Source: Candidatus Poribacteria bacterium
GTDB taxonomy: Bacteria; Poribacteria; WGA-4E; JAJDTR01
NCBI GenBank assembly: GCA_965222225.1
Contig: CBDCTK010000002.1
Location: 4,992,001 to 5,056,000 of the forward strand
Direction: 5' to 3'
DNA: 64,000 bases
The notes beneath the pieces are model-generated. The model searched no databases and was not told where the DNA came from. It worked only from the letters and a program-made list of their open reading frames with translations. Positions 2 to 39,072 of this stretch are shown here, piece by piece; position 1 is the first letter of the stretch, and each line of letters opens with the position of its first letter. The position numbers and the translations under genes were made by a program.

Positions 2-277
2 TTTGTCCCGCTTTTGCTTAAAGTTGGGCGAAGGGACTTGTACGTCACTTCCTTCAACGACTCGCGGGAGTTTTTCGATAAATTCTCGCAACGAGTGTGC
101 TGTCTGTGCGATGCGGTCTGGATTCTGTAAGTTATTCAAAGCGTAAAGTGCGCCAAGATACCACTGACTCAGCGGGTATTCCTCAGTTTCTCTGTCTTTT
201 AAGGCTTCCAGTACCCGTTGCTGTTTGGGCGTTAGTCTTGGCAGTTCGTGACTATTGTGATTGTCAATTGCTTGCAT
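2..277 (-). CDS. 5' part of a hypothetical protein running off the window (possible HEPN-like/defence-associated protein)
   Basis: ATG at 277 just after the mod stop; open frame MQAIDNHNSHELPRLTPKQQRVLEALK...NPDRIAQTAHSLREFIEKLP... to the window edge. Confidence 0.6.
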   Translation of the reverse strand, partial: MQAIDNHNSHELPRLTPKQQRVLEALKDRETEEYPLSQWYLGALYALNNLQNPDRIAQTAHSLREFIEKLPRVVEGSDVQVPSPNFKQKRDK

Positions 278-9008: not shown

Positions 9009-12000
9009 ATGAAACTGAACCCCAGCCATTTGCTGATAATCATTGCCATGCTTTGCGTGATAATAGTAGCAGGCGCAGTTTACATCGCCATTCAGAATGT
9101 GAAAGACACGACTCGCTTTACGGTAGAATCGATCTTGCCCGAAGGAACGGTTTCGCAGCGTGAGAACCTCACGTTCGCGTTTTCCGATCCGGTTGTCGAA
9201 GAGCGCTTACTCGATAAGGACCTGGACTATTCTCCGATTGAGTTTTCGCCTGCGATTCCGGGAAAATTTCGTTGGGTAGACACGGATAGGCTTCGGTTTT
9301 TTCCGGAAGTTACGTTTGCTCCTTCTACCGTATACACAGCGAAAGTGTTTCCAACTGTTAGCCACTCGCCGGATCGAGTTCTGAGCGGAAAGCGGACACT
9401 TTCCTTCGCTACCGAGCGGTTCAAGGTCAAAGAATCAAGACTGTCGTTTGAGCAAGGGGCGGGCAGAAAGAGCCGAGCAAAGATCCGTGCGGCGGTTGAA
9501 TTCAACTATCCCGTCGATCCTGCCGCACTGAAGGAAAGACTCACGATATCGTATGAGGACGGAAAGACGATTTCGTATCAACCTGTGACCGAGGAAGCAT
9601 CAGATATAATCGATCTAGAAACTGTCGAGATTGAGCGTAGCGAGGATAAACAGCGCTTTGCACTTAGGCTTGAGAAAGAATTCACATGTGTCAATGGAGG
9701 GGTTGGTCTCAAGAGCGCTTACATCAACAAAACCGCATTGGAAGGACGCGGGCACTTGATTGTCGAAAATGCAGGTGTGCGGGATAGTGGTGGCGGGCAC
9801 TATCTGGAGGTTCGGTTCAATTCAAAGGTCGCCCCTGACCAAGCACAACTGTTCCTGACCGTCGAGCCGGAGGAAAATTATCAATTGGTTTCTCACCGAC
9901 GTTATTTGCGGATTGAAGGCAAATTCGAGCCTGGCGACCAACGTACTGTAAAAATAGGTCGAGGTCTATCTGCCCAAGATGGGACAACTTTAAAGCGGAA
10001 CTTTTCAACAACGCTTACGATTCCGAACCTTCAACCGAACCTGAGATTCGTCGTCGGCGGGTTATATCTTCCTAGGGATGGTAATCTGAACCTCGGTTTA
10101 GCCACGGTTAACGTGAACAAGGTGAAGGTTGGTATTGAGAAAGTGTATGCCAACAATCTTGTTTTTCTGGCGAGTTCCCAAGGTTGGTCGCGGTGGGCGA
10201 GCAACCTTGGGAAGTCTTTACACAGCGAAGAGATTAGGATAGAGTCGGTGTTAAATGAGGAGGTCACGACACCAATCTCCTTGGCAGAATATCTGGAGGG
10301 TGACCGAATCGGTATCTTCAAAGTGACTGCCCGCGAATCGGAGAGGCGGTGGCGTTACGCAACTCAGTGGGTCATGGTAACCGACCTTGGCATAATGGCG
10401 AAGAAGACGGCAGACGAATTGTGGGTGTGGGTCAATTCACTGTCCACGTTGAAAGGAGTTGAGGACGCGGTCATTGAGGTTATCAGCGACAATAATCAGA
10501 TCCTGCTGAGCGGTACTACCAATTCCGACGGTGTTGTGAAATTCTCTTCAGTATCTGAAAAGATTGAAGGATTCGTCCCATTCATGATTACCGCGGCGAA
10601 AGGCAAAGACCTTTCCTTTATTGAGTTAAATCGCCGTAAACTGTCAACCACCAACTTTGGGGTTGCCGGTGCACCATATCTGGATAGCGGTTATGAAGCA
10701 TTCGTATACACTGATCGAGGAGTTTATCGACCTGGCGAGACTGCGAACCTAGTGAATATTGTGCGTGGAAAGGGCAACCTGACTCCACCTTCACTTCCGG
10801 TGCTGATACAGGTGTTGGCGCCCGACAAACGCATCTTTCGAGAATTTCGTTCGCAGACAGGCAGGGGAGGCGCTTTCGAGCTAAGCGTGAAATTCCCTGA
10901 ATACGCCAAGACGGGGCGGTACACTGCCAAGATTCATGTTGCAGACAACGAAATCGGGCGTGCCAGCTTTCAGGTCGAGGAGTTCATGCCCGACCGGATT
11001 AAGGTCACTCTAACGACGGATAAACCGGTTTATGCGGTGGGCGACGAGATTGCAGTTGACGTTGAGGCGGTAAACCTTTTTGGGCCACCAGCGGCCAATC
11101 GGAAAGTTATAGCTAGTTGCGATATTGAGGCAAGCGAGTTTGCACCCGAGAAGTGGAGTTCGTTTACGTTTTCTAATGCTACGTTAAAGTTCAAGAAGCG
11201 TCATATTAATCTTGGCGAGTCACGTACGGATGAATTTGGAAAGACAGTCTATCACCTTCCGATACCCTCGGAATTAAAGCCGCAATCCGCGCTGAGCGGT
11301 GTATTTGTTGCCACCGTCAGCGAACCTGGAGGACGAGCAGTCAGCGCCTACAGAGGGGTGACCATTCATCCTTATACCCATTATGTTGGAATTCGTCGGT
11401 CGCCGGAAGGTTATGCAAAGCTTAATGAGGAGACGACTATCGAATATATTTCTGTCGACAAAGATGGCATCCTGTCCGGCGGGCGAAATTTGAAGCTGAC
11501 GACTTACAAAATCCGTTGGAACTCCATTTTACGCCGAAATAGTAGTGGAAATTATCAGTATGTGTCGGAAAAACAAGCAGAAATACTTCGATCGATTCCG
11601 CTTACTTCGGTAGAAGGGATTGGCAGGTATGCGTTCGCACCGGCAGAATATGGCGAATACCGGATAGAGGTTCGGGATTTGGACTCCGGGGCGTCCGCTA
11701 CGACGGAATTTTACACCGCCGGTTGGGGTTACACGCCTTGGGCAATGGAAAATCCGGACCGGCTTGAGATTGACCTGGATAAAGCGAGCTATCAGCCCGG
11801 CGAAATTGCGAAAGCGCAGATTAAAGCCCCATTTGCCGGCAAACTCATCTTGACGATAGAGCGGGAGAAGGTATTGAGTTACCGAACGGTAACGATGCAG
11901 GAGAACACTGCTGTCATTGACATACCGATTCGGGCTGAATACAAGCCCAACGTCTACCTGTCCGCCAGTCTTATTCGCTCAACCACTTCATTGGAGAAGC

Positions 12001-14393
12001 ATTCCCCTGCCCGTGCCTTCGGTGTCGTTCCGCTTAAGTTGAACGATGACGTCAATCGATTGGCAGTCGAGATTGACGCGGTGGAGAAGTCCCGTCCGAA
12101 TCAAGAACTAGAGGTTGTCGTCCGTGTAGAGGGGCCGTCTCCAGCCAAGAGGGGAGTATACCGACTCACGGTTGCAGCGGTTGACGAAGGTATCCTTCAG
12201 TTGACAAACTTCCAGACTCCGGACGCCCACGGCTTTTTCTTTCGACGAAGGGGTTTGAATACCGACACGTTGGATCTCTATTCAGCGGTATTACCGGAAA
12301 TCGAGTCAGCAACGGGTAAGTCTAGCACTGGCGGCGGCGATGGGGTTGATGCGGGGCGAAAAAAGCGGTTGAGCACCGTCAGCGTGACGCGAGTGAAGCC
12401 TGTCTCGCTTTGGTCGGGTATTGTTACGACTGATGACATGGGCACAAGTGTCGTTCGATTCAGTATACCACAGTTCAACGGCACACTACGTTTGATGGCG
12501 GTTGCGTTCGCAGGCGATCGGTTCGGAAAGGCTCAGGAATCCGTCATCGTCCGCGATCCAATTGTTCTGACACCTACCTTTCCCCGGTTTGTATCGAGCG
12601 GCGACCGGTTCAAAGTTCCCGTGAGCGTGTTCAACGGAACGGTGGAGGACGGTGACTTTGACATCGCGCTGAGTCGGGAAGGAGCCGTTGAGATTCTGGG
12701 GGACAGCACGCAATCAATTCGTCTCAACACCGGTGAAGAGAGGCAAGTGTTGTTTGAACTTGCCGCCCAAGATGCGATGGGTAAGGTCACGTTCAACCTC
12801 TCGGCAAAGGGCAATCGCGAAAGTACACGGATGATTACAGATGTTCCAATTCGCCCGGCGACACCTCCCGTGACACAATCGGGCTACGGTGTGGTTAAGG
12901 CTGAACGCACGGCAGATTTTACTTTTCCGTCGAACTACATTGCGGGAACTGAGGAATTCGGGCTGACGCTGTCATCGTTTCCGGCAGTAAAGTTTGCCGG
13001 TGGAATCTCGTATCTTCTGCGGTATCCTTACGGGTGAGTTGAACAGGTCACGGCGGGGGTCTTCCCGCTGTTAGCTTTTGATAACATTGCCCAAACAATT
13101 GCTCCGGATCTCTTTGCGAAAGGCAGCGCGGATTATTTCATTAACGAGGGTATCGCCAAGCTAGAAAGCATGATGATGCCGGACAACTATTTCGCTTATT
13201 GGCCAGGCGGCAACTACGCGAACTACTGGAGTAGCATATTTGCCGCGCACTTCCTCGTTGAAGCGCGAAAAGCCGGCTATCAGGTTTCCGACCGCATTTA
13301 TCAGATGATGCTGGAGGCGCTGAAACGGGAAGCCAAGCACGGGGCGCGGGGGCGTAATGAACTTGAACGGATTGCCTATGCGGTTTACGTCTTGGCAGCA
13401 GCGGGTCAACCAGAGAAGAGCACCATGCTCTACTTGAAGAACAACCGATTGGAGGACCTCAGCGATTACAGCGAGTTTCAACTAGCCGGCGCGTTCGCGC
13501 TATCTGGCGACCTTGATACCGCGGTTTCAATGCTCCCAAGAGACATTTCACCCACAAGCGACGAGATGCGAGAATCGGGCGGGAATTTCAACTCTCCGGT
13601 TCGGGCTCAGGCTATCATGCTTGATGTACTGGCGGAAGTGCATCCCGACCACCCGACGGTGTCACAGCTTGTAAAGAGTTTGACTGACGCAGCATCTGGC
13701 AAAGGTCGGTGGCAAACGACTCAGGAAAACGCGTTTGCGTTCCTCGCGCTCGGAAAGATACTGAAGCAAGATATTGGAGCACAGTATACGGGCACAATCA
13801 CTATTGACGGGGAACACCTTGCGGAGTTTGGGCCAAGCGATCAACAGTATTCAAGCAAAGAGTGGGGCGGCAAGCGTGTACGGTTGAGCCTTGAGGGCAC
13901 AGGAAACAGCTACTACCAATGGCGGTCTTTTGGCGTCGAGACGGGTTCGTCTATTGAAGAGTTCGATAGGGAATTGCAGGTTAGACGCCGGTATATGTCG
14001 GAGGCTGGCGAGCCGATTGAGGACGGTGTTTTCAAGCACGGCGATATGGTTGTAGCGGAGATTTCAGTCAAGGCGCTGACCGCCAATCTGGAGAATGTGG
14101 TCGTTGTGGATATGCTTCCCGCAGGATTCGAGATTGAAAACCCGCGCTTGGAATCTCGCGCAGGTATTTCATGGCTGTCCAGAAAGCGTTTCAAGCCGGA
14201 CTACGTGGATATCCGCGATGATCGTCTCCTTTTCTTCGGCAAATTCCCGCGAAGGAAAGAGCAGAAGTTCTACTACGCGTTGAGAGCCGTTACACAGGGC
14301 GAATTCATACTGCCACCTGTCACGGCTGAAGCCATGTACGATCCGTCGAAGTCATCGGTGGCATCGGGAGGACGAATCAGTGTTGCACCGTGA
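9009..14393 (+). CDS. Bacterial alpha-2-macroglobulin, 1794 aa when read through TGA; predicted selenocysteine at residue 1343 in the thioester motif
   Basis: TDLG, YTDRGVYRPGE, FQVEEFMP, AAVDEGIL, DMLPAGFEIENP, IRDDR motifs; ORFs 9009-13037 and 13170-14393 are in frame, separated only by TGA 13035-13037 in YPYG*VEQ (canonical YPYGCxEQ); N-terminal membrane anchor. Confidence 0.9.
13050..13071 (+). promoter_or_regulatory. Putative bacterial SECIS element
   Basis: A-CGGCGGG-[GGTCTT]-CCCGCTG-T hairpin; loop starts with G, 20 nt after the TGA. Confidence 0.75.
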
Positions 14394-14553
14394 TGCGATG
14401 AAGGTTTCATTGACTGAATTCCGGCAACCAAATGCTAACTACCTTTATGCTCGATCTGGATTGTCAACTGCAGTGCTACAAAACCATTTGGCAATCCACC
14501 AGAGGCAAAAGCACAGCTCAATAAACCCGTTAGACGATATGGAGGAAAGGAAA

Positions 14554-15498
14554 ATGAAAAGGCAATTCTGCACGCTGAGTATGTGTTTGATCATGTTTAC
14601 AGTTACGAGTTCAATTCAAGGGAATGAGTTAAGCGACGTTGACATGGCGGAGCAGGCGAAGCATCTTATTGCTTGCTATAGGGAAGGCCATATTGATGCC
14701 TATTATACCTTGAATGCTACAGGCGGCGAGGGGTTAGTTCCAGTGTTTCTCGAAGCGCTGCGTGATTCTGACGCGAACGTTAGGATTCTCGCCGTAAATC
14801 AACTCACAAACTATAGGAAGGTAGAGACGATTGGACCGATTTCGGATGTGCTCAAGCACGACAGTCATGAAGGGGTGCGTGCAGCGGCGGCAACAAGTTT
14901 GGGGCAGCTTGGATATCGTGAGTCGAGTCCTTACTTGCTTGATGCCTTGAATGACAAATCGGCTAGCGTGGTGGAAGCGGCGATACGAGGTTTGGGATGG
15001 CTGAAATCTCGTGAAGCCGTACAACCATTGAAAGACAAACTGCGCGGCGACAACGAAAAGGACTGGGTAATTCAGCGCGCTGCCTCGGACGCCTTACAAG
15101 ACATTACTGGCGAGGACTGGGGTCAAGGTATACACGAATTCCCCCCGGAACTCAGAGTGCGTGATGCTGATATCACGCTTGAAGCCTATCAACGCGCGAT
15201 GGAATATCTCGGAGAGAGGCCTCCAGAGATGATTGATACCACCATCACTACGGAGGAGTTAACTTCGGCGGAGGGGTTTTACGTCGGGTATTGGAATCGC
15301 CTGACGATTATTGAGGGGTATCATTTGAAACAGAACCTACAAGTTTGCAAAGGTGCGCTGCAGCAAACATTGCAATCGAGGAAATTGAACGAAGTGATAG
15401 AGGATATAGAGGATGATGTCATGAACGCGCAGAAGGAGTATGATGAGGCGTGACAGAAATACGAGGATTTCTTGGCTAATAGTGTTTGGGCGGATTGA
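14554..15498 (+). CDS. Secreted HEAT-repeat protein, paralogue 1 (in-frame TGA at 15451-15453 just before the conserved tail)
   Basis: Signal-peptide-like N-terminus, EALRDSDANVR / VRAAAATSLG HEAT repeats; after the TGA the frame reads QKYEDFLANSVWAD, as in the paralogues. Confidence 0.8.
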
Positions 15499-15571
15499 TG
15501 TACCCCCGGTAGGAAAGTATTGTAATTCATGTTGTTCCGATTTTAAGATCCTGCAGTAAACGGAACTATGC

Positions 15572-15599
15572 GTAGGGAACACAGATCTGCGTTCCCTAC
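15572..15599. repeat. GTAG REP-like palindrome
   Basis: GTAGGGAAC-ACAGATCTGC-GTTCCCTAC. Confidence 0.65.
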
Positions 15600-15655
15600 A
15601 GATACAATTGTAAAACGAAAAACATAACGTGTTGTATGCGCAAATGGAGGCAACT

Positions 15656-16594
15656 ATGATGAAACAGCTACTAACGTTGATGAGCGCGTGCTTTATATTC
15701 TCTCTAATGGTACTCTCGGTTCGGGGGAGTGGGCGACCCGACGATGACATGAAGAATCATGTGAAAGAGCTTATTGGCCGCTATAAGCAGGGGGATCGTG
15801 AAGCCTACGACCTACTGATTGTAAACATTGATGAAAAATTGTTTCCGGTGTATCTTGAGGCGCTCAAGGATGCTGACGCCAAAGTTAGAAGGCTTGCGAT
15901 TAGGCAACTCGCGAGGTATAAGAAAAAGGAAGCTATCGCACCGATAGGACAGTTGCTTGAGAGCGACGCCAGCGAAGGCGTGCGTCGGGAGGCAGCTTCA
16001 AGATTGGGGCATTTGACCTACCCAGAGTCTAGTCGACTTCTGATTGATGCGCTGGACGACGACTCACAGCGTGTGGTGGAAGCAGTGATACGAGCGTTAG
16101 GTAGGTTGAAGTCTAAGGAAGCGATTGAGTCGTTGAAGGAGAAGCTGAAAGGCGACAATGAAAAAGACTGGGAAATTCAACGCGCTGCTGCTTACGCGCT
16201 GCGAGTCATCACTGGTATGGATTGGAGTGAAGGTATACATGAAGTTCCGCCGGAATACCGGACGCGTGATGAAGAGTTTACATTTGAAGCATACGAACGC
16301 GCAATTCGCTACTTTTCTAGATCTGTGCCTACTATGATTGACACGACAATCATAATTGATGAGTTGATCCACAGCGAGATGTTCTATATCGGCGGTCCAA
16401 ATCGTTTTACCATTCTTCAGGGATTCCACCTAAAGCAAAATGGACAACTACAGGAAAAAAACCTTAATCAGGCTCTGTTAGCACAGAAGTTAGGTACAAT
16501 GACGGACGATGATGTGACCAAAGCTAATGCCGCGTACGATCAAGCGCAGAAAAAGTACAAAGATTTCTTGGGGAAAAGTGGATGGGCGGATTGA
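15656..16594 (+). CDS. Secreted HEAT-repeat protein, paralogue 2
   Basis: GGAGG RBS, signal peptide, HEAT repeats, DNEKDW and C-terminal DFLGKSGWAD. Confidence 0.85.
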   Translation: MMKQLLTLMSACFIFSLMVLSVRGSGRPDDDMKNHVKELIGRYKQGDREAYDLLIVNIDEKLFPVYLEALKDADAKVRRLAIRQLARYKKKEAIAPIGQLLESDASEGVRREAASRLGHLTYPESSRLLIDALDDDSQRVVEAVIRALGRLKSKEAIESLKEKLKGDNEKDWEIQRAAAYALRVITGMDWSEGIHEVPPEYRTRDEEFTFEAYERAIRYFSRSVPTMIDTTIIIDELIHSEMFYIGGPNRFTILQGFHLKQNGQLQEKNLNQALLAQKLGTMTDDDVTKANAAYDQAQKKYKDFLGKSGWAD

Positions 16595-16741
16595 TTCCCA
16601 TACTCCGAATGGCAAGGCATTGTCATTATGAGATTATTTTAACAATAAACTAGCGGGGGCGATGACCGCAGTCCCGGGAGGGTTACAAATTCAATCGCAT
16701 CAGGTGGGAAAATATTCATACGCCGAAAACTGGAGGAAATA

Positions 16742-17680
16742 ATGTCAGAAAAACTGTTGATTTTCTTGGGCACATGCTTGTTAAGCTTTTCTATTACGTC
16801 TTCAATCCAAGGAAACGGGGCGCTGAAAGGTGAAGACATTGCGGCACAGGCAAGAGAGCTAATCGTGCGTTATGGGCAGGGGGATTCGGGAGTCTATTAC
16901 AGGATGGCAAACACTAGAGATGATAGGTTGGTTCCGGTGTTTCTTGAAGCACTCAAAAATTCCAACTCCAGGATAAAGATTCTTGCGATAAGTCAGCTTC
17001 GAAAATACGGAAAAAAAGAAACTATCGTCCCCATGGTGGAATTGCTCAAACACGACGAAAATGCCGACGTACGTGCGGCAGCCGCTGCCAGTTTAGCTCG
17101 GTTTCGCACCGCGGAGTCAAGCCAAGATCTCCTCAATGCTCTACATGATGAGTCCCCCAGGGTAGTAAGGGCTGCGATAAGGGTATTGGGACACCTAAAG
17201 TCAAAGGAAGCGGTTGTACCGCTGAAGGCGAGATTGTCCATAGATAACGAAAAGAATTGGGCAGTTCGGCGGGCCGCTAAAGACGCATTGGAATCCATCA
17301 TTGGTGCTGACTGGAAGCGAAGCATGCGCGAGATTCCGCCCCAGTTTCGAGCACGAAATGAAGATATCACGCATCAAGCCTATGAGGCCGCGATGGAGAA
17401 TCTGGGTAGCGCGCTTGGTAAAATTAACAGAGCTGGCTCAATAAGGGAACTAAGTGTAGATGAGGAATTCTTACGCGACTATGGAAAGACGGTAATTGTT
17501 ATTGAAGGATACTACCTGAAACAGAACGCAGAGATTTACAGAAAGGCGCTTGAAAACGCACGGCTTTCAGTGGAATTAGGTGAGATGACGAATGATGATG
17601 TGACAAAAGCCGAAGCCACTTACAATCAAGCCCAGTCTAGGTACGAGGATTTTCTGGCAAACAGTGTTTGGGCGGATTGA
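16742..17680 (+). CDS. Secreted HEAT-repeat protein, paralogue 3
   Basis: GGAGG RBS, signal peptide, HEAT repeats, DNEKNW and C-terminal DFLANSVWAD. Confidence 0.85.
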   Translation: MSEKLLIFLGTCLLSFSITSSIQGNGALKGEDIAAQARELIVRYGQGDSGVYYRMANTRDDRLVPVFLEALKNSNSRIKILAISQLRKYGKKETIVPMVELLKHDENADVRAAAAASLARFRTAESSQDLLNALHDESPRVVRAAIRVLGHLKSKEAVVPLKARLSIDNEKNWAVRRAAKDALESIIGADWKRSMREIPPQFRARNEDITHQAYEAAMENLGSALGKINRAGSIRELSVDEEFLRDYGKTVIVIEGYYLKQNAEIYRKALENARLSVELGEMTNDDVTKAEATYNQAQSRYEDFLANSVWAD

Positions 17681-23783: not shown

Positions 23784-23858
23784 CGGGGCGTAGCGCAGTC
23801 CGGTTAGCGCATCTGCTTTGGGAGCAGAGGGTCGGAGGTTCGAATCCTCTCGCCCCGA
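23784..23858 (+). tRNA. tRNA-Pro(TGG)
   Basis: CGGGGCG/CGCCCCG acceptor; TCTGC-TTTGGGA-GCAGA anticodon arm. Confidence 0.97.
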
Positions 23859-23878
23859 TTCTTAAATTGATTGCTGAC

Positions 23879-23952
23879 GCGCCCGTAGCTCAGTTGGATA
23901 GAGCAACTGACTTCTAATCAGTAGGCCGCGGGTTCAAATCCTGCCGGGCGTA
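23879..23952 (+). tRNA. tRNA-Arg(TCT)
   Basis: ACTGA-CTTCTAA-TCAGT anticodon arm; TAGCTCAGTTGGATAGAGC D arm. Confidence 0.96.
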
Positions 23953-23966
23953 TATCCTTCCCCAAT

Positions 23967-24043
23967 GGTGGGTGTAGCTCAGGCGGTAGAGCGCTTGACT
24001 GTGGATCAAGTGGTCGTGGGTTCAAATCCCATCACCCACCCCA
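23967..24043 (+). tRNA. tRNA-His(GTG)
   Basis: G-1, CTTGA-CTGTGGA-TCAAG anticodon arm, encoded CCA. Confidence 0.97.
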
Positions 24044-24177
24044 TTTCTTATGAGAATATCGAATATGGCGCTAAGGAACCGGATGGCTACCGTTATTGGG
24101 GCGCAAGCTTAACGTGACGACTCCAAAAATGAATCCGGGCAATTCGTTACTCTTTCGTGAACAGTATTCCGTCGTAT

Positions 24178-24251
24178 GCGTCCGTGGTTCAATTGGATAG
24201 AGCAATAGACTTCGGATCTATAAGTTGGGGGTTCGAGTCCCTCCGGACGCA
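24178..24251 (+). tRNA. tRNA-Arg(TCG)
   Basis: GCGTCCG/CGGACGC acceptor; ATAGA-CTTCGGA-TCTAT anticodon arm. Confidence 0.94.
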
Positions 24252-24261
24252 TGTTTCTGAT

Positions 24262-24334
24262 GCGTCGTTAGCTCAATTGGCAGAGCATCTGACTCTTAAT
24301 CAGGTGGTTGAAGGTTCGATTCCTTCACGGCGCA
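24262..24334 (+). tRNA. tRNA-Lys(CTT)
   Basis: CTGA-CTCTTAA-TCAG anticodon arm; GGTTCGATTCC T arm. Confidence 0.95.
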
Positions 24335-24348
24335 CTAAATTCCTTTGT

Positions 24349-24433
24349 GGGCGGGTGTTGGAATTGGTAGACAAGATAGATTTAGGATCTATTGGGGTTA
24401 TTCCTCGTGAGGGTTCGAGTCCCTTCTCGCCCA
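24349..24433 (+). tRNA. tRNA-Leu(TAG)
   Basis: ATAGA-TTTAGGA-TCTAT anticodon arm; long variable arm. Confidence 0.95.
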
Positions 24434-24467
24434 TCATTCCGGATTCGCACGTAAACAGGAGGTCTAC

Positions 24468-30753: not shown

Positions 30754-33700
30754 CTACTTCAATATTGCCATTCTCCGCATAGCAACAAAGTCACCTGCCG
30801 AAATCTGATAGAAATATGTTCCGCTTGAAATCGACTCACCCAGTTCATTCTTGCCATCCCAATATGCCGCGTTTGCCTGTGTGACGTATTCTCCAGCCTT
30901 TTGCTGTCCGATATCAAGATGGCGAACCAATGAGCCGCTAGTGTCAAAGATTCGAATCATCACTGAAGTATCTGATTCAATCTCGTAAGGTATCCACGTT
31001 TCAGGATTGAACGGATTTGGGAAGTTCTGTCCAAGTCGATTGGTGTAAAGCGGAATGGAAGTTTTTGCCACGCTTGGCGGTTTGCGAAATACGGTGGGAT
31101 CTTCTACTGAAAGTTCAAAGAGGTACTCGTTTATTTTGAACATGCGCAAGTCGTAGCGATCTGTAACATAAACGGTATCACCGATAACAATCAGGTCAGA
31201 CGGGAATCGTAACGCTGCTTGAAAGTTGGGACGTGAGACTAGATTGCGATTTCGGACATCCACAATCTGCAATCGTTTCTGATCCAGCAGGAAGAGGTGG
31301 TCTCCACGAATTTGTGCGGCGATTGGCAGCGCGTCGGTTTGATATTCGGCTATGGAATCGGGGCGTCTAGGATTGCTCAAGTCCAAGATTTGTACGCCTG
31401 CTAGCGTATCCAACAGATAACCCCTATTTCCAAAGACAGTGATATTTGTCGCATTCCCCTGTGATTCATAGCTTCCGATTGCTCGAGGGTTGGCAGGGTC
31501 GTCCAAGTCGAAAATTTGCAATCCACCGTTGAGAGCCGCCACGTATCCGAGGTTGTCGACGATTGTTATTCGATAAGCACTTCCCGGCATAGAGCGCCGG
31601 GCGACGACGCGGCTGTTCATCGGTTCGCGGCTATCGACTACGATTAACTCGTCCGCACACAAAAAAACATATCCTTCGTTGACTTCGATTCCCCAAGCAG
31701 GCGCGGTGGTCCGAATGTGTGAGACCATACGCGGATTGTTGGGATTGCTTAGATTTATAACAATTAAACCGCTGTCGGCTGCGGCAACGAAGGCGTGGGC
31801 GTTCTCGACCCGAACATCCACTGCAGTGCCCATAAGTGGTATGCGATGCCTAAAAACGGCATCAGACGCGCGCTCAATTTCAACTATCTTGAGCCCACCT
31901 GTCCCACATGCGATGTAGGCAATTCGATTTCCCTCCTCCGTTTCTAGAATGTCCATACCGTGAGCCTCGCCGGAGGCATCGTAACGATGTAGCCACTCTG
32001 GGCGGTTGGGTATGCTGAGGTCAATCACCTGTAGACCGCGATTTCCGTCAGCGATGTACCCGAACGTTTCATTCACATCGGATTTGAATAGGTCCAATCC
32101 CATTGCGTCTCCCGATGTTGGCTGAATCGCAACAGTTTGCGGCTGTTGACGATTTCGAACGTCGACCACATAAAGACCCGATTGGATGTCGGTGAGATAC
32201 AGGTACCCGTCTAGAAATTTAATAGCTGTTGCAATTCCTGGCGTTTGAATGCTTGAGATTGCTTTCGGTTTAAGGCGATTTCGCACGTCAACAATCTGCA
32301 TATTACCCGAAGCGACGTATGCGTATCCATCTACAACTTCGAAATCAAGGGCAAGTATATCAACAATGCCTGCAAATGCCGGGATGTTAATAAATTCAAA
32401 GTCGAGAATCTGGAATCCCTGGTTATCATCGCTAAAATAAACCGTGTCGCCGTCCACCACGATATCCAGAGCAAATCCGCTTGTTTGGAAGGTACCAATT
32501 GGCTGTGGGTTTGTCTGATTGTGCATTTCGTTAAGGTCATAGATTTGGAGTCCTTTGTTGATGTCTACTACGTATGCCTTCTCATTAGCAATCTTGATTC
32601 GGCGGACACTCTCGAAATTTCCGATGGTCCTAACCAATCTTGGATTATCGGGGCGCCGCACGTCAATGAGCGTTGCACCTGCAGCGCCATCCGCAACGTA
32701 AATCGTTTCTCTATCGATTGCGACACCTTGCGCATTTCCTGGCGTTGCGATCTGGCCAACCAATCGCGGGTGGCTTGGAGTCTCCAAATCGAAAACCTCT
32801 AATCCCCAGTCGCTTACTGCATAAACCAGTCCTTCACCGACAACTAAATCTTGATAGTAACTTGATAAATGTATTTGTGATACCGGCTCCAGTTTGAAGT
32901 CTACATAGGTCCGTTTGTGGCTTGGTTGAGATTGATTGCCGATTGCATGGGTAGTTGCTTTTGGGAGCGCAATTGATGAATCCATCTGGCGAGGGGGGCC
33001 AACAACGATACCAGACGTACCATCTGTAGTAGCGGCGTAACGGAACGATTGAGCAGCGGTAGAGGTCACCATGAGAACAACTCGGTCACTCGGGTTCAGG
33101 CTTTTCAACTCGATTCGTCCATTGTTGCCCTCATCAAAATTGATTGAATGAACGGAAGCGGTGCCGTTGCTGGGTAAAAGGGCAAGCTGGGCATGTAGGC
33201 TGCCATCGCCGGTGCCATCCAAAGCGATTTCAATCCGGTTCGGTAAATTACGAAACACGACGTATCGCACGCCCCAGTTCTCTACGTCGCCGGAGCGGAC
33301 AATCGGATAACTCGATACCTGCTGGACAGGAGCAACTACCCGTCGATTCTGTAGGTTTCTGTAACCTAACGATTTTCCGCGCGAGATATTGTTAACAAAA
33401 TTCGCAAGCGCCCAATTTTGAAAAACATCGGCGAAACGCTCCGGTCGACCCAATGATGTTAAAGTTGCGTCAATACCACGTATGCCGAGGAAATCTTGCC
33501 GAGCGAACTCACGAATAAACTTTTCGCCGCCATGCTGTTCAAACAGATATAACAGGAGTATAAATGATGCGCCATAGTATGTTTCAAACGTATTCCCCGA
33601 GGTCAGGGAGATTCCCGGGTCTTCAAAGTAGCCGTCAATGAAGATGCCGTGGACATTTCTGTAAATTGCCCATTCGACGAACGACGCGATTCCTTCCTCT

Positions 33701-34386
33701 ATCCAGCGTTCATCTGACGTTCCACCGTTCTGATACCAGTTGACAAGATGTGCGAATTCATGGGCTAAACTGTTATAAAATGTGAATCGCGATCGTTCTC
33801 TAAACTGGAAAATGTCCATGTAGACTATTTCCTTGCGGTTGCTGTTAAGCGCAGTGGGATCTTGATCTGTGGACGAAAAGTATCCGCCGAATTCCTTGCC
33901 TGAGTTATTTGCACCAACATCGTGCATTAGCAAAGTTATTCTCGTATCAAGATCCAATCCTGGCCGCCATTCGAATCCAACCCAACGATGAACTTGCGGA
34001 TAAATTCGAGAATCAAACTCAGCGACAATCTCGCGCGCCTCGGCGGCGGTCATCATGTCTAAGAAGGGATTCTCAACATAGAGATAAATGTTCTCACTGA
34101 TGGCGAGACAGGTGGCTTCGACCAACTGTTCCGGGATGTGCGTGAAGAATCGTTCGATATTTCCTACGTGGACTTCGGGGGGAGGGGCAGCGGGGAGGTG
34201 CGGCAACTGCGGGGCTCCGGCAACAGGTGGTCGCGAGGTTTCCTCACGCCAGAGCATAGGAGTACCACAACCCCAGTGAGCACCGGCAGCTGAATCTTCT
34301 TCATCAAGTGCAGCCTGGGTTAGGTTGGCGATGGCATAAAGTAAGCAGAGCAGCAGATTACGGTACACTAATATATTGACCTCCAC
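30754..34386 (-). CDS. Secreted zinc metallopeptidase (M6/M30-like) with LVIVD repeats and a C-terminal FlgD-Ig/sorting-like domain
   Basis: Signal peptide, CGTP, LAHEFAH...WIEEGIA; repeated AYVA..GGLQI.D.S.P units; QNFPNPFNPETWIPY tail. Confidence 0.82.
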   Translation of the reverse strand: MEVNILVYRNLLLCLLYAIANLTQAALDEEDSAAGAHWGCGTPMLWREETSRPPVAGAPQLPHLPAAPPPEVHVGNIERFFTHIPEQLVEATCLAISENIYLYVENPFLDMMTAAEAREIVAEFDSRIYPQVHRWVGFEWRPGLDLDTRITLLMHDVGANNSGKEFGGYFSSTDQDPTALNSNRKEIVYMDIFQFRERSRFTFYNSLAHEFAHLVNWYQNGGTSDERWIEEGIASFVEWAIYRNVHGIFIDGYFEDPGISLTSGNTFETYYGASFILLLYLFEQHGGEKFIREFARQDFLGIRGIDATLTSLGRPERFADVFQNWALANFVNNISRGKSLGYRNLQNRRVVAPVQQVSSYPIVRSGDVENWGVRYVVFRNLPNRIEIALDGTGDGSLHAQLALLPSNGTASVHSINFDEGNNGRIELKSLNPSDRVVLMVTSTAAQSFRYAATTDGTSGIVVGPPRQMDSSIALPKATTHAIGNQSQPSHKRTYVDFKLEPVSQIHLSSYYQDLVVGEGLVYAVSDWGLEVFDLETPSHPRLVGQIATPGNAQGVAIDRETIYVADGAAGATLIDVRRPDNPRLVRTIGNFESVRRIKIANEKAYVVDINKGLQIYDLNEMHNQTNPQPIGTFQTSGFALDIVVDGDTVYFSDDNQGFQILDFEFINIPAFAGIVDILALDFEVVDGYAYVASGNMQIVDVRNRLKPKAISSIQTPGIATAIKFLDGYLYLTDIQSGLYVVDVRNRQQPQTVAIQPTSGDAMGLDLFKSDVNETFGYIADGNRGLQVIDLSIPNRPEWLHRYDASGEAHGMDILETEEGNRIAYIACGTGGLKIVEIERASDAVFRHRIPLMGTAVDVRVENAHAFVAAADSGLIVINLSNPNNPRMVSHIRTTAPAWGIEVNEGYVFLCADELIVVDSREPMNSRVVARRSMPGSAYRITIVDNLGYVAALNGGLQIFDLDDPANPRAIGSYESQGNATNITVFGNRGYLLDTLAGVQILDLSNPRRPDSIAEYQTDALPIAAQIRGDHLFLLDQKRLQIVDVRNRNLVSRPNFQAALRFPSDLIVIGDTVYVTDRYDLRMFKINEYLFELSVEDPTVFRKPPSVAKTSIPLYTNRLGQNFPNPFNPETWIPYEIESDTSVMIRIFDTSGSLVRHLDIGQQKAGEYVTQANAAYWDGKNELGESISSGTYFYQISAGDFVAMRRMAILK

Positions 34387-34904
34387 GCCTACAACATTAA
34401 CAAGATCTTGGTCGTTGAAGAAGGTAAGTGTTTTCAGACCGTTTCAAGGTACATGGCGGTGCAGTTTCTACAGAGTAAAAGCGAAGATTTCATGTTATTA
34501 CGTCAGGATGAATCCGTTCTAGGCCGTATTTGGTTGTCTCTCGTGATTTGGGATTTTACTACAACACTACACAGATGTCAATTTTAGACGTGTTTAATAG
34601 CGTACTGAGAACCGAAATGTTCCACGGTTCAATGGTGTTATCAACAATTGGGAGTAGAATGAACGGGGCACCCGTTTTAAGGAGACAGACTCTTATTTAA
34701 CATGTGGGATAGAGAAAGAATTTGATCTTTGCCAAAAAATCGAATATACTTGATATCCAACTTCAAGACGCCGAGTTTAGGATTCATTCGACATAAACGA
34801 CAATATACACATTTTTGTTTGCAGACGGGTTACGAATAATTTAATGACAGGTTACCTCATATCATTACTGAAGTATAGCTCGTCGGGATTCCACTAAGAA
34901 CTTG

Positions 34905-37900
34905 ATGAACCAACAGAAACTCAAACGCACGCTTGCCTTTGTGCTGTTCACGATTTCACTTTGCTACATCTCCGATTCGTCGGCAGCCCCGCCCCTTCCA
35001 CATACGTATTACGGCAAAGACTACCCAGACAATTCCGAATTTATCTCATTTCTCCAGAAGTTTCCGAGTTACGCCAAGTCGCTTTGGAAAGGCAACTATC
35101 GTGGGGATTCGCAGATTGGGTACTTCGGCAGCGGTGGACACGACCACAACCAAATGCGATCTCACGCGAACTTTATTTTTGTGTGTGCGCTTCTCAAAGC
35201 AGACGCGAATTACGATTCGTCCGTCTCTGGAATAGACCGAGATTGGCTTCTTACCCAAGCACGAGCTGCCCTTCGCTATCTTACGGAGACTCATGTCACC
35301 GGGAATAATGTCTGCGTTGATGGACGGAAATGGGGCAAACAACCGAATCAGTGGATAGCACCATGGGTGATTTCCAAAGCGGTAGCGGGGGCACGCCTTA
35401 TTTGGGAGGATTTGACCCGGGACGAACAGAATGCTATTCGGCGCGTCGTGGTTCATGAAGCGAACTACCAACTAAAGCAGCGCGCTGCATCCCGAGCGTA
35501 TGGAGATACGCATGCTGAATTCAATGCCTTGAACGCCGAGGTGCTTGCTTGGGCAGCCAGTCTATATCCAACTCATCCGAACGCGAGACACTGGTTGCTT
35601 AAGGCACAAGAGATGTTCATGAACACGTTTTCAGTGGCTCAGGACAAAAGAGACATAACTATTGTTGATCGTAGACGCGTCAATGAATGGGTCTATACAG
35701 CTAATGCCCATCCAGATTTCACGCTTGAGGGACACGGTGGTTACCACTTCGATTATATTGCTGTTCCTTTGCATTCTCTTGCTTGGGCGTATTACGCGTT
35801 TGTTAGCAATGGACAGCCCGTACCCCAGTCTCTATTTCATCATGTGTTAGATGTTTGGAATAGTCTGAAGAAAACCCATCTCTACTCGGGGCGTTTTGCT
35901 TACCTACAAGGAAAAGATTGGGCTCGACATGTCTATGGACCTTACTTTATCGTGCCCATGTTGGCGTTGCTTCAAAATGAATTTGGCGATGCGGACGCTC
36001 GATTTATTGAGCAACTTCGATTCGGGGCACTTCAATGGGAACAACAGCAGAACAGCAGAGGAAGCGTTTTCGATAGAAGATTCGGGTATCAGCGTACGGG
36101 CTGGCCAGTGATATATGAAACCGATTGTTATGCGAATCTAGGACTTGCATACCTGCTTCATCAATTCGCACCATCAATTCATGCGGAAAGCGCTTATGAC
36201 TTTCAAGAAAAGGTTGAAGGCAACTTTTACAGCAGATATTGCGATTTTCTTTATGCTCGCAATAAAGATGTGTTTGCATCATTCAGTTGGAAACATCTAT
36301 CCAGAAGGTATCCGATGGCTTTGTTTGTACCGGGAGACGATTATATGGTGGAGTGGGCAGACGGCAATCTGATGGGGACTCTAAGTGTTGAAAACACTGA
36401 TATGGCTCGAACGACCATACGCCATAACAACCGTTTGCTCAAGGATGGCTTCGTTACCACTGGACACATTCAAGAAGGAAAATCGAAGGGCGGTTTCGGA
36501 ATCGATCACTACATTAGTTTTACTGCGTTGCCAAAAAACAAAATGGCTGTAATGATGGAACTCTTGGTGGCAAAGACGCCGATACATGTAGCAGGCCAGT
36601 CAGGATTATCGTATTATTTGCCAAACGATATTTTTAACAATGGTGTAAGACAGGTACATTGGGAGGCAGGCAACGCTCGCTTACGAGGCGCTAGGGGGGT
36701 GATCGCAAATCCCATAACCATAGATTCCAAATGGGTCAATATAGACAATAAACTGGGAATTATCAGCGTACCGGATAACGGTCAATTTCAGATCTTACCC
36801 GGAAGTAGGAATCTTTGGAATGGGCAGATTAGCGAACGAATTGACTACGTGACCGGATCGAGACGGCGGCAATATAAACAGAATGATGTTATCCGATCGC
36901 AGGGCTATTTTCTTACCAATACTGATATTCAATCGACGCGAAAGATTGCGGAGACTGAAGTTCACTGGCTGAAGGCAGACGACGATTTCGTTAAGGCGGT
37001 CACATTCAGGGACGGCGGTTCAAATCGTATAATCGTCGCAAATTTCAGACATACTCCAATAGATACCACGATTCAATTGCATACCGGTGAAAGGGTGGAG
37101 GTGCGACTTCAGAGGCTTAATACTGTGATATTAGGAGAGGTCGCCGGTGCCGAAGTCACGCACTCGAAGGATAATGGAAAGATGGTGCTGGTGCCAGCAG
37201 GAGAGTTCATCATGGGAACAAGCCAAGCACAACTTCAGAGAATCGTGCAGGGACGAAGGGATGCCGACGCCCTCAGGGAAGTCTTTGCACATGAACAGCC
37301 GCAGCACCGTGTTTATATCGACTCGTTTTACATCGACAAATACGAGGTCACAAATAAGCAATTCAAGAAATTCGTTGATTCCACCGGATATGTCACAGAT
37401 GCCGAGAAACAGGGCTGGGGATATCTGTGGGAAGGATCGAATGAATGGCCTCGCCCAGAAGGCGCGTCCTGGCGCGCCCCTCATGGCCATGGCAGCTCAA
37501 TTCGGCGTAAGGACAACTATCCTGTCGTGCAAGTTAGCTACAATGACGCATTGGCGTACCTAGAATGGGCAGAGAAACGATTACCGACTGAAGCAGAGTG
37601 GGAAAAGGCTGCCAGAGGCATAGATGATCGCCTGTATCCGTGGGGCAATCAATGGGACCCAACCCGCCTGAACTCATGGGAGGCAGGACCACACAAAACA
37701 ACACCCGTTGGAAGTTATCCCAAGGGAGTCAGCCCATATGGCGCATACGACATGGTGGGAAATGTGTGGGAGTGGGTATTCGACTGGTATCACCCGAAAT
37801 ACTACCGTACTTCGCAGGAATGGTCAAATCCCACAGGACCAGCAGAAGGAAAACATCGTGTACTGCGGGGGGCTTGTTGGTTGAATGAAAAGCATGTTAC

Positions 37901-38642
37901 ACGGTGTGCTCATCGCGACAATTATGTAACTGTTCCCGATTTTCGAATCCACCTAGGCGGGTTTCGAGGTGTGGTGTCCGCAAACCGATTTGAGGGCGAA
38001 TCAAGATTTCGGAATCTTGAAGATGTGAATTCGGATGGTGCAGTTGATGTTCTTGATTTTATTATCGTGGCTAGTGAATTTGGTCAAACCTTGCCTAGTC
38101 AATCCGCTGCAGATGTCAACTTTGATGGGCTAGTGGACGTTTCGGATCTGACTCTTGTTGCTTCGCACCTTGACGAAGGCACCGCATCGTCAGCTGCACC
38201 TAGTATCGCGCAGCGTTTTTCTCAACAGCAACTTTCTAACATGCGCGAGGCGCTTAATAGTTTGGAAGTCCTTGCCAATCCGCCGTCGGGGGTAGAGATT
38301 GCGCGACAGTTTCTAAGGAGGTGGTTGCGACATGTGCCCACAATTGTCGAGGAGACGAAACTGTTGCCCAACTACCCTAATCCCTTTAATCCGGAAACTT
38401 GGATTCCCTATCAGCTTGCAGTTGATACCGAGGTTAAGATTTCGATCTATGATATTGCGGGGACTCTCGTGCGGCACTTGGATTTAGGACATCAGAAAGC
38501 AGGGATTTATGAACTGAAATCCACGGCGGCGTATTGGGATGGAAAGTCGGCTAACGGAGAACCGGTTTCGAGTGGTCTGTACTTTTATCAACTCCGGGCG
38601 GGCAACTTCACCTCGGTAAAGCGTATGGCAGTTATCAAGTAA
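34905..38642 (+). CDS. Secreted multidomain protein: lyase-like N-terminus, FGE-sulfatase (SUMF1) domain, dockerin-like repeats, FlgD-Ig/sorting-like domain
   Basis: GEFIMG, DKYEVTN, PVVQVSY, RLPTEAEWEKAARG, DMVGNVWEW; DVNSDGAVDVLD and DVNFDGLVDVSD; NYPNPFNPETWIPYQL. Confidence 0.8.
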   Translation: MNQQKLKRTLAFVLFTISLCYISDSSAAPPLPHTYYGKDYPDNSEFISFLQKFPSYAKSLWKGNYRGDSQIGYFGSGGHDHNQMRSHANFIFVCALLKADANYDSSVSGIDRDWLLTQARAALRYLTETHVTGNNVCVDGRKWGKQPNQWIAPWVISKAVAGARLIWEDLTRDEQNAIRRVVVHEANYQLKQRAASRAYGDTHAEFNALNAEVLAWAASLYPTHPNARHWLLKAQEMFMNTFSVAQDKRDITIVDRRRVNEWVYTANAHPDFTLEGHGGYHFDYIAVPLHSLAWAYYAFVSNGQPVPQSLFHHVLDVWNSLKKTHLYSGRFAYLQGKDWARHVYGPYFIVPMLALLQNEFGDADARFIEQLRFGALQWEQQQNSRGSVFDRRFGYQRTGWPVIYETDCYANLGLAYLLHQFAPSIHAESAYDFQEKVEGNFYSRYCDFLYARNKDVFASFSWKHLSRRYPMALFVPGDDYMVEWADGNLMGTLSVENTDMARTTIRHNNRLLKDGFVTTGHIQEGKSKGGFGIDHYISFTALPKNKMAVMMELLVAKTPIHVAGQSGLSYYLPNDIFNNGVRQVHWEAGNARLRGARGVIANPITIDSKWVNIDNKLGIISVPDNGQFQILPGSRNLWNGQISERIDYVTGSRRRQYKQNDVIRSQGYFLTNTDIQSTRKIAETEVHWLKADDDFVKAVTFRDGGSNRIIVANFRHTPIDTTIQLHTGERVEVRLQRLNTVILGEVAGAEVTHSKDNGKMVLVPAGEFIMGTSQAQLQRIVQGRRDADALREVFAHEQPQHRVYIDSFYIDKYEVTNKQFKKFVDSTGYVTDAEKQGWGYLWEGSNEWPRPEGASWRAPHGHGSSIRRKDNYPVVQVSYNDALAYLEWAEKRLPTEAEWEKAARGIDDRLYPWGNQWDPTRLNSWEAGPHKTTPVGSYPKGVSPYGAYDMVGNVWEWVFDWYHPKYYRTSQEWSNPTGPAEGKHRVLRGACWLNEKHVTRCAHRDNYVTVPDFRIHLGGFRGVVSANRFEGESRFRNLEDVNSDGAVDVLDFIIVASEFGQTLPSQSAADVNFDGLVDVSDLTLVASHLDEGTASSAAPSIAQRFSQQQLSNMREALNSLEVLANPPSGVEIARQFLRRWLRHVPTIVEETKLLPNYPNPFNPETWIPYQLAVDTEVKISIYDIAGTLVRHLDLGHQKAGIYELKSTAAYWDGKSANGEPVSSGLYFYQLRAGNFTSVKRMAVIK

Positions 38643-39072
38643 ACTGAGACACCAAGCGGGCATCTGCTATAGTAAAAAAATCGGAAACATGCGAAACCAA
38701 ATTCAGCCAAATTCATCGCTGCGCTTAGGAAGGTTTGATTTCACAACCTTCAGTCTATGGAATTCACCGATAGATGAGAAGTTAATCGGGATGATTTAAA
38801 GGGAGCATCTTTAACTGTGGATTTGCATGGCACACAAATTAGCTGGCTTGCTAAGATTGATGTGTGTGCATTGATAATGTTAAATGAAGCGCCAAGTAAG
38901 ATGACCTATATGATGCTCTTCTTCCGTGATGATATTTATTCTGATTAACTGTGCCGGTACATTCGCTGTCTCATTCACCTTTTCTATCATCGTGAGAAGT
39001 TGAGTCAGTGATACTGTTACGCTCGAAATACGATAAAATAGGGTGCGTCCAGTGTACAACTCGCAGGAGTCC

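Follow-up and report, generated by a model that had tools for sequence, protein, structure and literature searches.

A predicted selenocysteine at the thioester site of an alpha-2-macroglobulin from sponge-associated Candidatus Poribacteria, a candidate selenoester protease trap

We analysed a stretch of 64,000 nucleotides from a sponge-associated Candidatus Poribacteria bacterium (assembly GCA_965222225.1, contig CBDCTK010000002.1, positions 4,992,001 to 5,056,000 of the forward strand; referred to as the window), whose genome (G000) comprises 5.70 Mb in two contigs. The window carries a gene for an alpha-2-macroglobulin (A2M) in which the codon of the thioester cysteine is TGA. Our comparative analysis indicates that this UGA is very probably decoded as selenocysteine (Sec), so that a full-length A2M is made and the protein is a real selenoprotein. 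The evidence consists of the conservation of the UGA at a cysteine position, a hairpin linked to the UGA, the Sec machinery of the genome and the constraint on the sequence downstream of the codon, which together argue for Sec decoding and a full-length product. We give the whole explanation, which includes an internal selenoester between Sec and a nearby glutamine, a probability of roughly 0.55; the selenoester itself is suggested by the conservation of this glutamine, the adjacent glutamate and the residues of the surrounding pocket.

The gene appears as two open reading frames, 9009..13037 (1342 aa) and 13170..14393 (407 aa), which lie in the same frame and have as their sole break the TGA at 13035-13037. 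The surrounding sequence at 13020-13049 reads CGG TAT CCT TAC GGG TGA GTT GAA CAG GTC (R-Y-P-Y-G-[TGA]-V-E-Q-V), and no stop occurs in the 44 codons that separate the TGA from the next ATG (13038-13169). Translation with TGA as Sec (U) yields 1794 residues with one internal TGA (U1343) and a terminal TGA. The initial annotation of this DNA had read the two frames as a single one, split only by a TGA in the context Y-P-Y-G-[TGA]-V-E-Q, with 44 stop-free codons before the next frame and a read-through product of 1794 aa, and all of this is borne out by the sequence and its translation. On the read-through protein, Pfam recognised seven A2M-type domains (bMG3, MG2, bMG5, bMG6, A2M_BRD, A2M and bMG10), and a search with residues 1101-1794 found no second A2M in the source genome.

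The identity of the TGA codon with the thioester cysteine follows from alignment to A2Ms of solved structure. In a phmmer search, residues 1109-1793 matched Salmonella A2M (SaA2M, 4u48) with an E value of 1.9e-51, covering 943-1646 of 4u48; the alignment places ypygCveq over ypygCleq and aeaMYdps over vesMYapq. The thioester domain (TED) bears the conserved CXEQ motif, the site of thioester formation, and Tyr1175, Tyr1177, Met1625 and Tyr1626 of SaA2M form a pocket shielding the thioester, as described in the available part of PMC4498604. At the locus studied here, the glutamate and the glutamine of CxEQ are present, and the cysteine nucleophile is not encoded, the codon being TGA and not TGY; decoding of the TGA as Sec would turn the motif into UxEQ, an isosteric variant of CxEQ. 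The tyrosines at positions -4 and -2 relative to the TGA, the glutamate at +2, the glutamine at +3 and the C-terminal Met-Tyr are all kept in 11 of 11 Sec forms, and the tyrosines, glutamate and glutamine of the motif are also present in almost all of 98 Cys forms. An AlphaFold2 model of residues 1101-1794, built from an alignment of 20 sequences, reached a mean local confidence (pLDDT) of 82.4 and a global score (pTM) of 0.71; when compared by Foldseek it resembled the native forms of E. coli A2M (ECAM, 5a42; TMq 0.70) and SaA2M (4u48; TMq 0.69), with lower values for protease-activated forms (0.45-0.48). In this model the TGA position falls between the first two TED helices (225-237 and 244-256 of the fragment), and is therefore predicted not to lie at a domain border. 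In every tested respect but the nucleophile, the protein is a type I bacterial A2M.

Relatives were searched in all six frames with residues 1101-1794 as the query, in 159 genomes of the order (134 of which matched at E <= 1e-40, with the best 150 of 190 matches listed) and in 173 genomes of the class. In each of the ten species of the genus (G000-G009, 85-88% amino acid identity), the open frame of ~1800 aa contains a single TGA, which is always the codon that follows Y-P-Y-G and precedes V-E-Q. Among the matches listed for order and class, the only other stop-bearing A2M orthologues come from two other Poribacteria genera, namely G062, with a clean frame of ~1823 aa and its sole TGA at the thioester site, and G041 (L054, C1:254500-262700), with a TGA at the site and a weaker hairpin. 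TGT or TGC occupies the position in 20 Cys-form loci as well as in G063 and G064, which hold the nearest Cys forms (71-72% identity), and in 10 further motif-bearing loci from KSB1, Verrucomicrobiota and other metagenome-assembled genomes (MAGs). A metagenome scan with alignment A2 retrieved 80 loci of 37-60% identity; 78 of the 78 assessable ones have TGT or TGC, and two are cut by contig ends, while a scan with P0029 as the query gave no match. Among the 120 best cluster representatives in a protein database searched with the N-terminal half, 17 have ...YP[YH]G as their exact end, and CxEQ is present in the remaining 103; the protein P0087 was considered as a further split form and rejected, as it is truncated by the start of its contig (L145). 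That the TGA might be unique to this genome, which the initial annotation had raised as an objection, is thus not the case: the same codon occurs in the ten species of the genus at a synonymous divergence (dS) of ~0.8, in G062 and in G041, and the other orthologues examined have Cys codons.

Bacterial Sec insertion sequence (SECIS) elements are modelled as a stem-loop shortly 3' of the UGA with a G in the apical loop, and a helix at 13051-13070 has these properties. Its 5' arm (13051-13058) begins at a distance of 13 nt from the UGA; then come a loop (13059-13062) and the 3' arm (13063-13070), the G-containing apical loop lying ~21 nt after the UGA; the hairpin is located as previously proposed, with 20 nt between the TGA and the loop start assigned at that time (13058). 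RNAfold predicts a stem of 9 bp with a GUCU loop, the ninth pair, A13050-U13071 in G000, extending the 8-bp stem, and only four of 1785 windows of 30 nt along the gene are equally or more stable than that of the hairpin. RNAalifold, applied to the 12 TGA-bearing sequences, returned the same 8-bp helix as drawn by hand, with 96.6% of the cells paired, compared with 41-76% when the 3' partner was slid by 1-3 columns. The minimum free energy of the 30-nt segment ranges from -8.7 to -14.6 kcal/mol in 11 distinct TGA sequences versus 0 to -7.8 kcal/mol (mean -3.0) in 29 Cys sequences, and 6-8 of the 8 helix pairs are kept in TGA forms versus 2-5 in Cys forms. The hairpin is accordingly present in 12 of 12 TGA-bearing sequences and absent from the 29 Cys forms tested, so that the conservation among TGA-bearing orthologues on which the initial annotation had made its case depend is indeed found. 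Across the ten species of the genus, codons +6 to +10 show no synonymous diversity, and the window from +5 to +11 has a value of 0.108 against a gene mean of 0.35, the fifth lowest of ~722 windows. The hairpin is also visible in the protein: where Cys forms have T-S-K/R, the Sec forms have T-A-G, whose codons make up the 5' arm. All 98 Cys forms carry Ser at position +6, where the 11 intact Sec forms all carry Ala, and position +7, mostly Lys or Arg in Cys forms, is Gly in all 11 Sec forms. A SECIS within the coding region would thereby force residue changes (Ser to Ala, Lys/Arg to Gly) at otherwise invariant positions near the active site.

The part of the gene behind the TGA bears the marks of a translated sequence. 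In a codon alignment of the ten genus sequences (~742 codons upstream and 451 downstream of the TGA; Nei-Gojobori, 45 pairs), the mean pairwise ratio of nonsynonymous to synonymous divergence (dN/dS) is 0.085 downstream (dS 0.86) versus 0.107 upstream (dS 0.77), and none of the ten species has a stop or a frameshift in the 451 downstream codons. The portion that would go untranslated if the TGA were a stop thus appears to be under constraint at least equal to that of the portion before it. Relaxed selection on the C-terminal part, which had been named as an argument against a selenoprotein, is not what these values indicate.

The genome is equipped to decode UGA as Sec. The genes selA (601 bits) and selB (343 bits) and the gene for tRNA-Sec (76 bits) lie side by side at C2:1590238-1593758, and selD (364 bits; L010) is found at C2:2933348-2934274 on the minus strand; selA, selB, selC and selD all score above the curated cut-offs, and the machinery whose presence the initial annotation had left to be confirmed is complete. 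The selD gene carries an in-frame TGA of its own, in the context E-C-A-G-[TGA]-A-S-K-L, followed by a hairpin whose GGG loop lies at +21..23 from the U of UGA, ~18 nt after the UGA. Within the window, a tandem peroxiredoxin (61686-62687, plus strand; 333 aa with two AhpC/TSA domains and an N-terminal signal-like segment) has TGA codons at both peroxidatic positions (61920 and 62373), each in the context F-T-G-G-[U]-T and each followed by a similar hairpin, GCUCGCUC-CGGGAU-GAGxxGAGC, with its loop at +26..31, ~23 nt after the UGA. The double-TGA peroxiredoxin reported in the initial annotation is therefore real, and it is probably a selenoprotein with two Sec residues. Six tRNA genes (Pro, Arg, His, Arg, Lys, Leu) are clustered in the window at 23784-24435 on the plus strand, and long-arm tRNA-Leu genes gave matches to the tRNA-Sec model that were weak and below threshold. 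In the order, selA scores above the cut-off in 151 of 159 genomes, Cys-form genera included, and the Sec machinery was therefore rejected as a discriminator between the lineages; Sec use appears to be general in the group and does not separate those with a Sec-A2M from those with a Cys-A2M. The available text of PMC13582414 (2026) names Poribacteria as one of the phyla in which group 4 hydrogenases containing Sec occur.

The gene is covered, at 95-99+% identity, by contigs that stem from the RNA libraries of two studies; the TGA is bridged by two of these (X13 record 8, 12987-14393; X15 record 15, 12495-13916) and by a contig from another run with an unrecorded library type (X3, 11474-13684). 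At the site itself, contigs of four other runs show no indel among the differences listed, and none of the 40 differences listed, out of 136, falls on 13035-13037. These comparisons were made with contigs, whose depth and coverage are uninformative on the level of expression. As RNA libraries may contain DNA and the differences listed are a subset, the contigs lend weak support to transcription and to the base at the TGA.

From these data we propose the following mechanism. The gene would give rise to one membrane-anchored, periplasm-facing A2M of 1794 residues, of the thioester-bearing (YfhM/ECAM) type, with SelB and tRNA-Sec decoding the UGA as directed by the hairpin within the coding region. 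During folding, the selenol of Sec1343 would attack the side-chain amide of Gln1346 to form an internal gamma-glutamyl selenoester, which would be buried under Tyr1339, Tyr1341, Met1776 and Tyr1777. Once a protease cuts the bait region, the selenoester would become exposed and a lysine of the protease would be acylated, an acylation that is expected to proceed faster than from a thioester. In a model of side-chain Asp esters in dimethyl sulfoxide, aminolysis of the phenyl selenoester was ~6 times faster than that of an activated p-nitrophenyl thioester, and with the plain phenyl thioester the reaction was impractically slow (PMC7232547, as far as its available text goes).

The most serious competitor to this mechanism shares its first half. 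Sec might be inserted and no selenoester formed, the selenol being free or held as a selenenyl-sulfide or in another redox state, and the protein might act by non-covalent trapping or in a redox or sensing role. We consider this distinctly less probable than selenoester formation, while giving it considerable weight: all of the evidence for Sec decoding applies to it equally, known selenoproteins are almost all redox enzymes, and, compared with a thioester, both the formation and the retention of a selenoester should be more difficult. Moreover, there are bacterial A2Ms without a thioester, those of type II (PMC5764988), and the non-covalent trapping would resemble theirs. What speaks for the selenoester is the retention of Gln+3, Glu+2, the pocket tyrosines and the Met-Tyr in every intact Sec form at up to ~33% divergence, as this is the set that a bond-forming site would need, whereas the motif has no nearby second Cys or Sec for a redox couple.

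It might also be argued that the TGA is a true stop, so that the locus would be a pseudogene or a split gene whose two products have 1342 and ~407-450 aa. The locus is indeed split by gene callers and in public annotation, and the copy in the relative G041 is clearly decayed. The stop, however, always falls exactly at the thioester Cys codon, in the midst of the predicted TED fold and away from a domain border; the 44 codons from the TGA to the next ATG are conserved as well as stop-free, the downstream part is under the purifying selection described above and intact in ten species, and the hairpin is confined to TGA forms. A split would further destroy the CxEQ unit, yet the glutamate and glutamine behind the TGA are invariant. 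We therefore regard a true stop as very unlikely. Equally little credit can be given to read-through independent of selenium, by which a near-cognate tRNA would insert Trp, Cys or Arg or the TGA would be reassigned. Both stop read-through and TGA reassignment occur in bacteria, and a hairpin 3' of a stop can promote read-through. TGA is nevertheless the commonest ordinary stop in the window, where it terminates 11 of 25 long stop-to-stop frames, including that of the A2M gene itself, which indicates that it is not reassigned in this organism; the genome holds a full Sec pathway and other genes with TGA at Cys positions (selD and the tandem peroxiredoxin), and the position is Cys in all homologues, a classic Sec/Cys pair. 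A sequencing or assembly error, for which nothing specific speaks beyond the fact that long-read MAGs can carry errors, can practically be dismissed given that the codon recurs in separate assemblies of ten species, in G062 and in 17 clusters of the database, and given the contigs from four other runs that span the site.

Several observations weigh against a Sec-decoded, selenoester-forming A2M, some against the hairpin as a SECIS and others against the chemistry. The hairpin is not significantly more stable than shuffled sequences (61-nt fold, z = -1.15; 21 of 200 shuffles as stable), and on account of this unremarkable result we relied on the comparative tests instead. A scan of 12900-13200 against Rfam gave no family match, only chance matches with E above 3. 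The 3' arm codes for F-P-L, which is conserved in all A2Ms for protein reasons. Three helix pairs vary on one side only (A-U/G-U, G-C/G-U and G-U/A-U), and none of the eight pairs shows a compensatory double change among the 12 TGA sequences. Thus, of the combination that the initial annotation had looked to, a conserved TGA accompanied by a covarying hairpin, the first part holds, with TGA in 12 sequences and TGY in the other orthologues examined, and the second does not; the helix is backed by its conservation and its link with the TGA, not by compensation. The genomes with TGA are mutual relatives, perhaps amounting to three lineages, and hence not independent samples. One copy of the Sec lineage, that of G041, is decayed: the frame is shifted close to its start, ~800 nt are inserted, a TAG occurs early, and an additional in-frame TGA lies 184 codons upstream. 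With respect to the chemistry, an amide should be thermodynamically more difficult to convert into a selenoester than into a thioester, and a selenoester may hydrolyse too fast for storage. We know of no selenoester demonstrated in any natural protein, and the selenium in this A2M is so far a prediction from sequence comparison.

The Sec state appears to be old enough to span genera that are ~33% divergent in this region. In a quick IQ-TREE search with positions -240..+445 around the site from 33 loci, all 12 TGA forms fell into one clade (SH-aLRT 96). FastTree, applied to 900 residues upstream, grouped the clade of the genus with Cys forms of g4/g14/g15 (support 1.0), apart from the other stop-bearing clades. 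The trees of the two gene halves (L021-L054; P0122-P0165) hence disagree on the monophyly of the Sec forms, a conflict that may be due to a tree artefact, or to the C-terminal part having been recombined or transferred; at least two switches between Sec and Cys, or an exchange of the C-terminal part, are likely. A further lineage, 57-60% identical, shows the same arrangement at the level of proteins, from which alone its stop is known: the N-terminal halves P0145 and P0147 end exactly at ...YPYG, and the C-terminal halves P0026, P0029 and P0031 start 12 residues later; in the pairs P0145/P0026 and P0147/P0031 the two halves come from equally long contigs. With the Cys form of G162, a genome of another order, P0026 shares 83% identity. 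As this second lineage ends at the same codon and is close to a Cys form from another order, it might be hypothesized that Sec probably arose or was exchanged more than once.

Features of the A2M gene are collected in Table 1. Three HEAT-repeat genes (357, 321 and 312 aa) follow it at 14380-17680 on the plus strand, and since the first of them begins 14 nt ahead of the A2M stop, co-transcription is suggested; the upstream neighbours are RidA-like and enoyl-reductase genes. In public annotation, one C-terminal piece is called 'hypothetical protein' (NCBI), N-terminal pieces are called 'MG2 domain-containing protein, partial', and the names at JGI are generic, relatives of this gene being labelled 'YfaS (alpha-2-macroglobulin family)'. 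Matching C-terminal pieces (405-464 aa, on long contigs) and N-terminal pieces are annotated separately, indicating that public annotation splits the gene. Elsewhere in the window, 30754-45285 holds a cluster of genes for large secreted proteins with type IX secretion sorting tails, comprising a 2080-aa peptidase of the C25 (gingipain) family with a propeptide (39043-45285), an FGE-sulfatase/dockerin protein (34902-38642) and an LVIVD-repeat protein (30754-34386, minus strand).

Table 1. Positions of the A2M gene and its elements in the window.
Feature	Position	Strand	Details
Complete alpha-2-macroglobulin coding sequence	9009..14393	+	1794 aa with predicted Sec at residue 1343; terminal TGA 14391-14393
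N-terminal hydrophobic segment LLIIIAMLCVIIVAGAVYIAI, ~residues 8-28	9030..9092	+	Read by eye from the translation; likely membrane anchor or signal anchor
Bait-region domain, residues 919-1065	11763..12203	+	Pfam A2M_BRD, E 7.5e-25
Thioester-site motif Y-P-Y-G-U-V-E-Q	13023..13046	+	Pocket Tyr1339 and Tyr1341, predicted acyl donor Gln1346; roles by alignment and from the available part of PMC4498604
In-frame TGA, predicted to be read as selenocysteine (U1343)	13035..13037	+	Comparative evidence
SECIS-like hairpin, 8-bp stem CGGCGGGG / UCCCGCUG, loop GUCU	13051..13070	+	Folding and comparison of orthologues
Rest of thioester domain and C-terminal macroglobulin (MG) domain (bMG10)	13038..14390	+	Translated only upon read-through of the TGA; bMG10 E 7.3e-28
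Met1776-Tyr1777 in the C-terminal MG domain	14334..14339	+	Counterparts, by alignment, of the thioester-covering Met1625/Tyr1626 of SaA2M

Compared to type I bacterial A2Ms (E. coli YfhM/ECAM, 5a42, 4ziq and 4rtd; SaA2M, 4u48), the protein has the same set of domains, the Y-P-Y-G-x-x-E-Q motif, the pocket tyrosines, the C-terminal Met-Tyr and a likely N-terminal membrane-anchoring segment. It differs in the TGA (Sec) codon in place of the thioester Cys codon, in the SECIS-like hairpin within codons +5 to +12 with its accompanying changes of Ser+6 to Ala and Lys/Arg+7 to Gly, and in its identity of ~25% to the solved proteins. Type I A2Ms carry an inner-membrane lipoprotein anchor; here, the N-terminal segment shows a hydrophobic helix, and no canonical lipobox was seen by eye in the translation. 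Type I A2Ms frequently, though not universally, form an operon with pbp1C (pbpC), according to the available part of PMC4498604; here, pbpC is not adjacent and the HEAT-repeat genes are found instead. Type II A2Ms (Pseudomonas MagD, E. coli YfaS) are likewise large periplasmic protease-binding proteins built from MG domains, and they are without the thioester motif in the available text of PMC5764988, whereas x-x-E-Q and the pocket are fully kept here. The thioester-containing proteins (TEPs) of eukaryotes, such as human A2M, complement C3/C4 and insect TEP1, share the TED and MG fold (Foldseek E 1e-27 to 1e-32, TMq ~0.6) and the logic of CxEQ, a buried acyl donor that is exposed by proteolysis (available part of PMC4498604). 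They are only 12-16% identical to the A2M described here and differ from it in domain count and oligomeric state. To our knowledge, eukaryotic TEPs are Cys-only.

With other bacterial selenoproteins, among them the selD product and the peroxiredoxin of this genome, the A2M shares a UGA at a Cys position, a GC-rich hairpin at a similar loop distance and the dependence on selA, selB, selC and selD. E. coli FdhF is likewise a bacterial selenoprotein with Cys homologues and a SECIS in the coding region. Unlike in known selenoproteins, the Cys that is replaced here is the nucleophile of an internal acyl (thio)ester and is not redox-active or metal-binding. We know of no described selenoprotein family in the A2M/complement/TEP superfamily, as the initial annotation had also stated, and no report of a Sec-containing A2M was found in the full-text literature searched, the supplementary tables of selenoproteome surveys being outside its scope. 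The Sec-A2M thus appears, from the comparison of sequences, to be a new selenoprotein family that current annotation splits into 'hypothetical' or 'partial' genes. A larger claim, on which we are evenly divided, would see in it a natural Sec-Gln protein selenoester that serves as the warhead of a trap and reacts faster than that of any thioester protein, the first non-redox, acyl-carrier use of Sec and the first selenoprotein among A2M, complement and TEPs, probably with more than one origin or exchange.

Almost without exception, selenocysteine is viewed as a redox residue, and here it is predicted to replace the nucleophile in a protein whose only known chemistry is to store an acyl bond and to pass it to an amine. 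Even without the selenoester, the Sec-A2M would still represent a new selenoprotein family. If the selenoester is true, it would widen the known chemistry of the 21st amino acid, it would offer protein engineers a genetically encoded capture group that is more reactive towards amines, and it would constitute a natural experiment on the question of why thioester proteins such as A2M, C3, C4 and the TEPs use sulfur.

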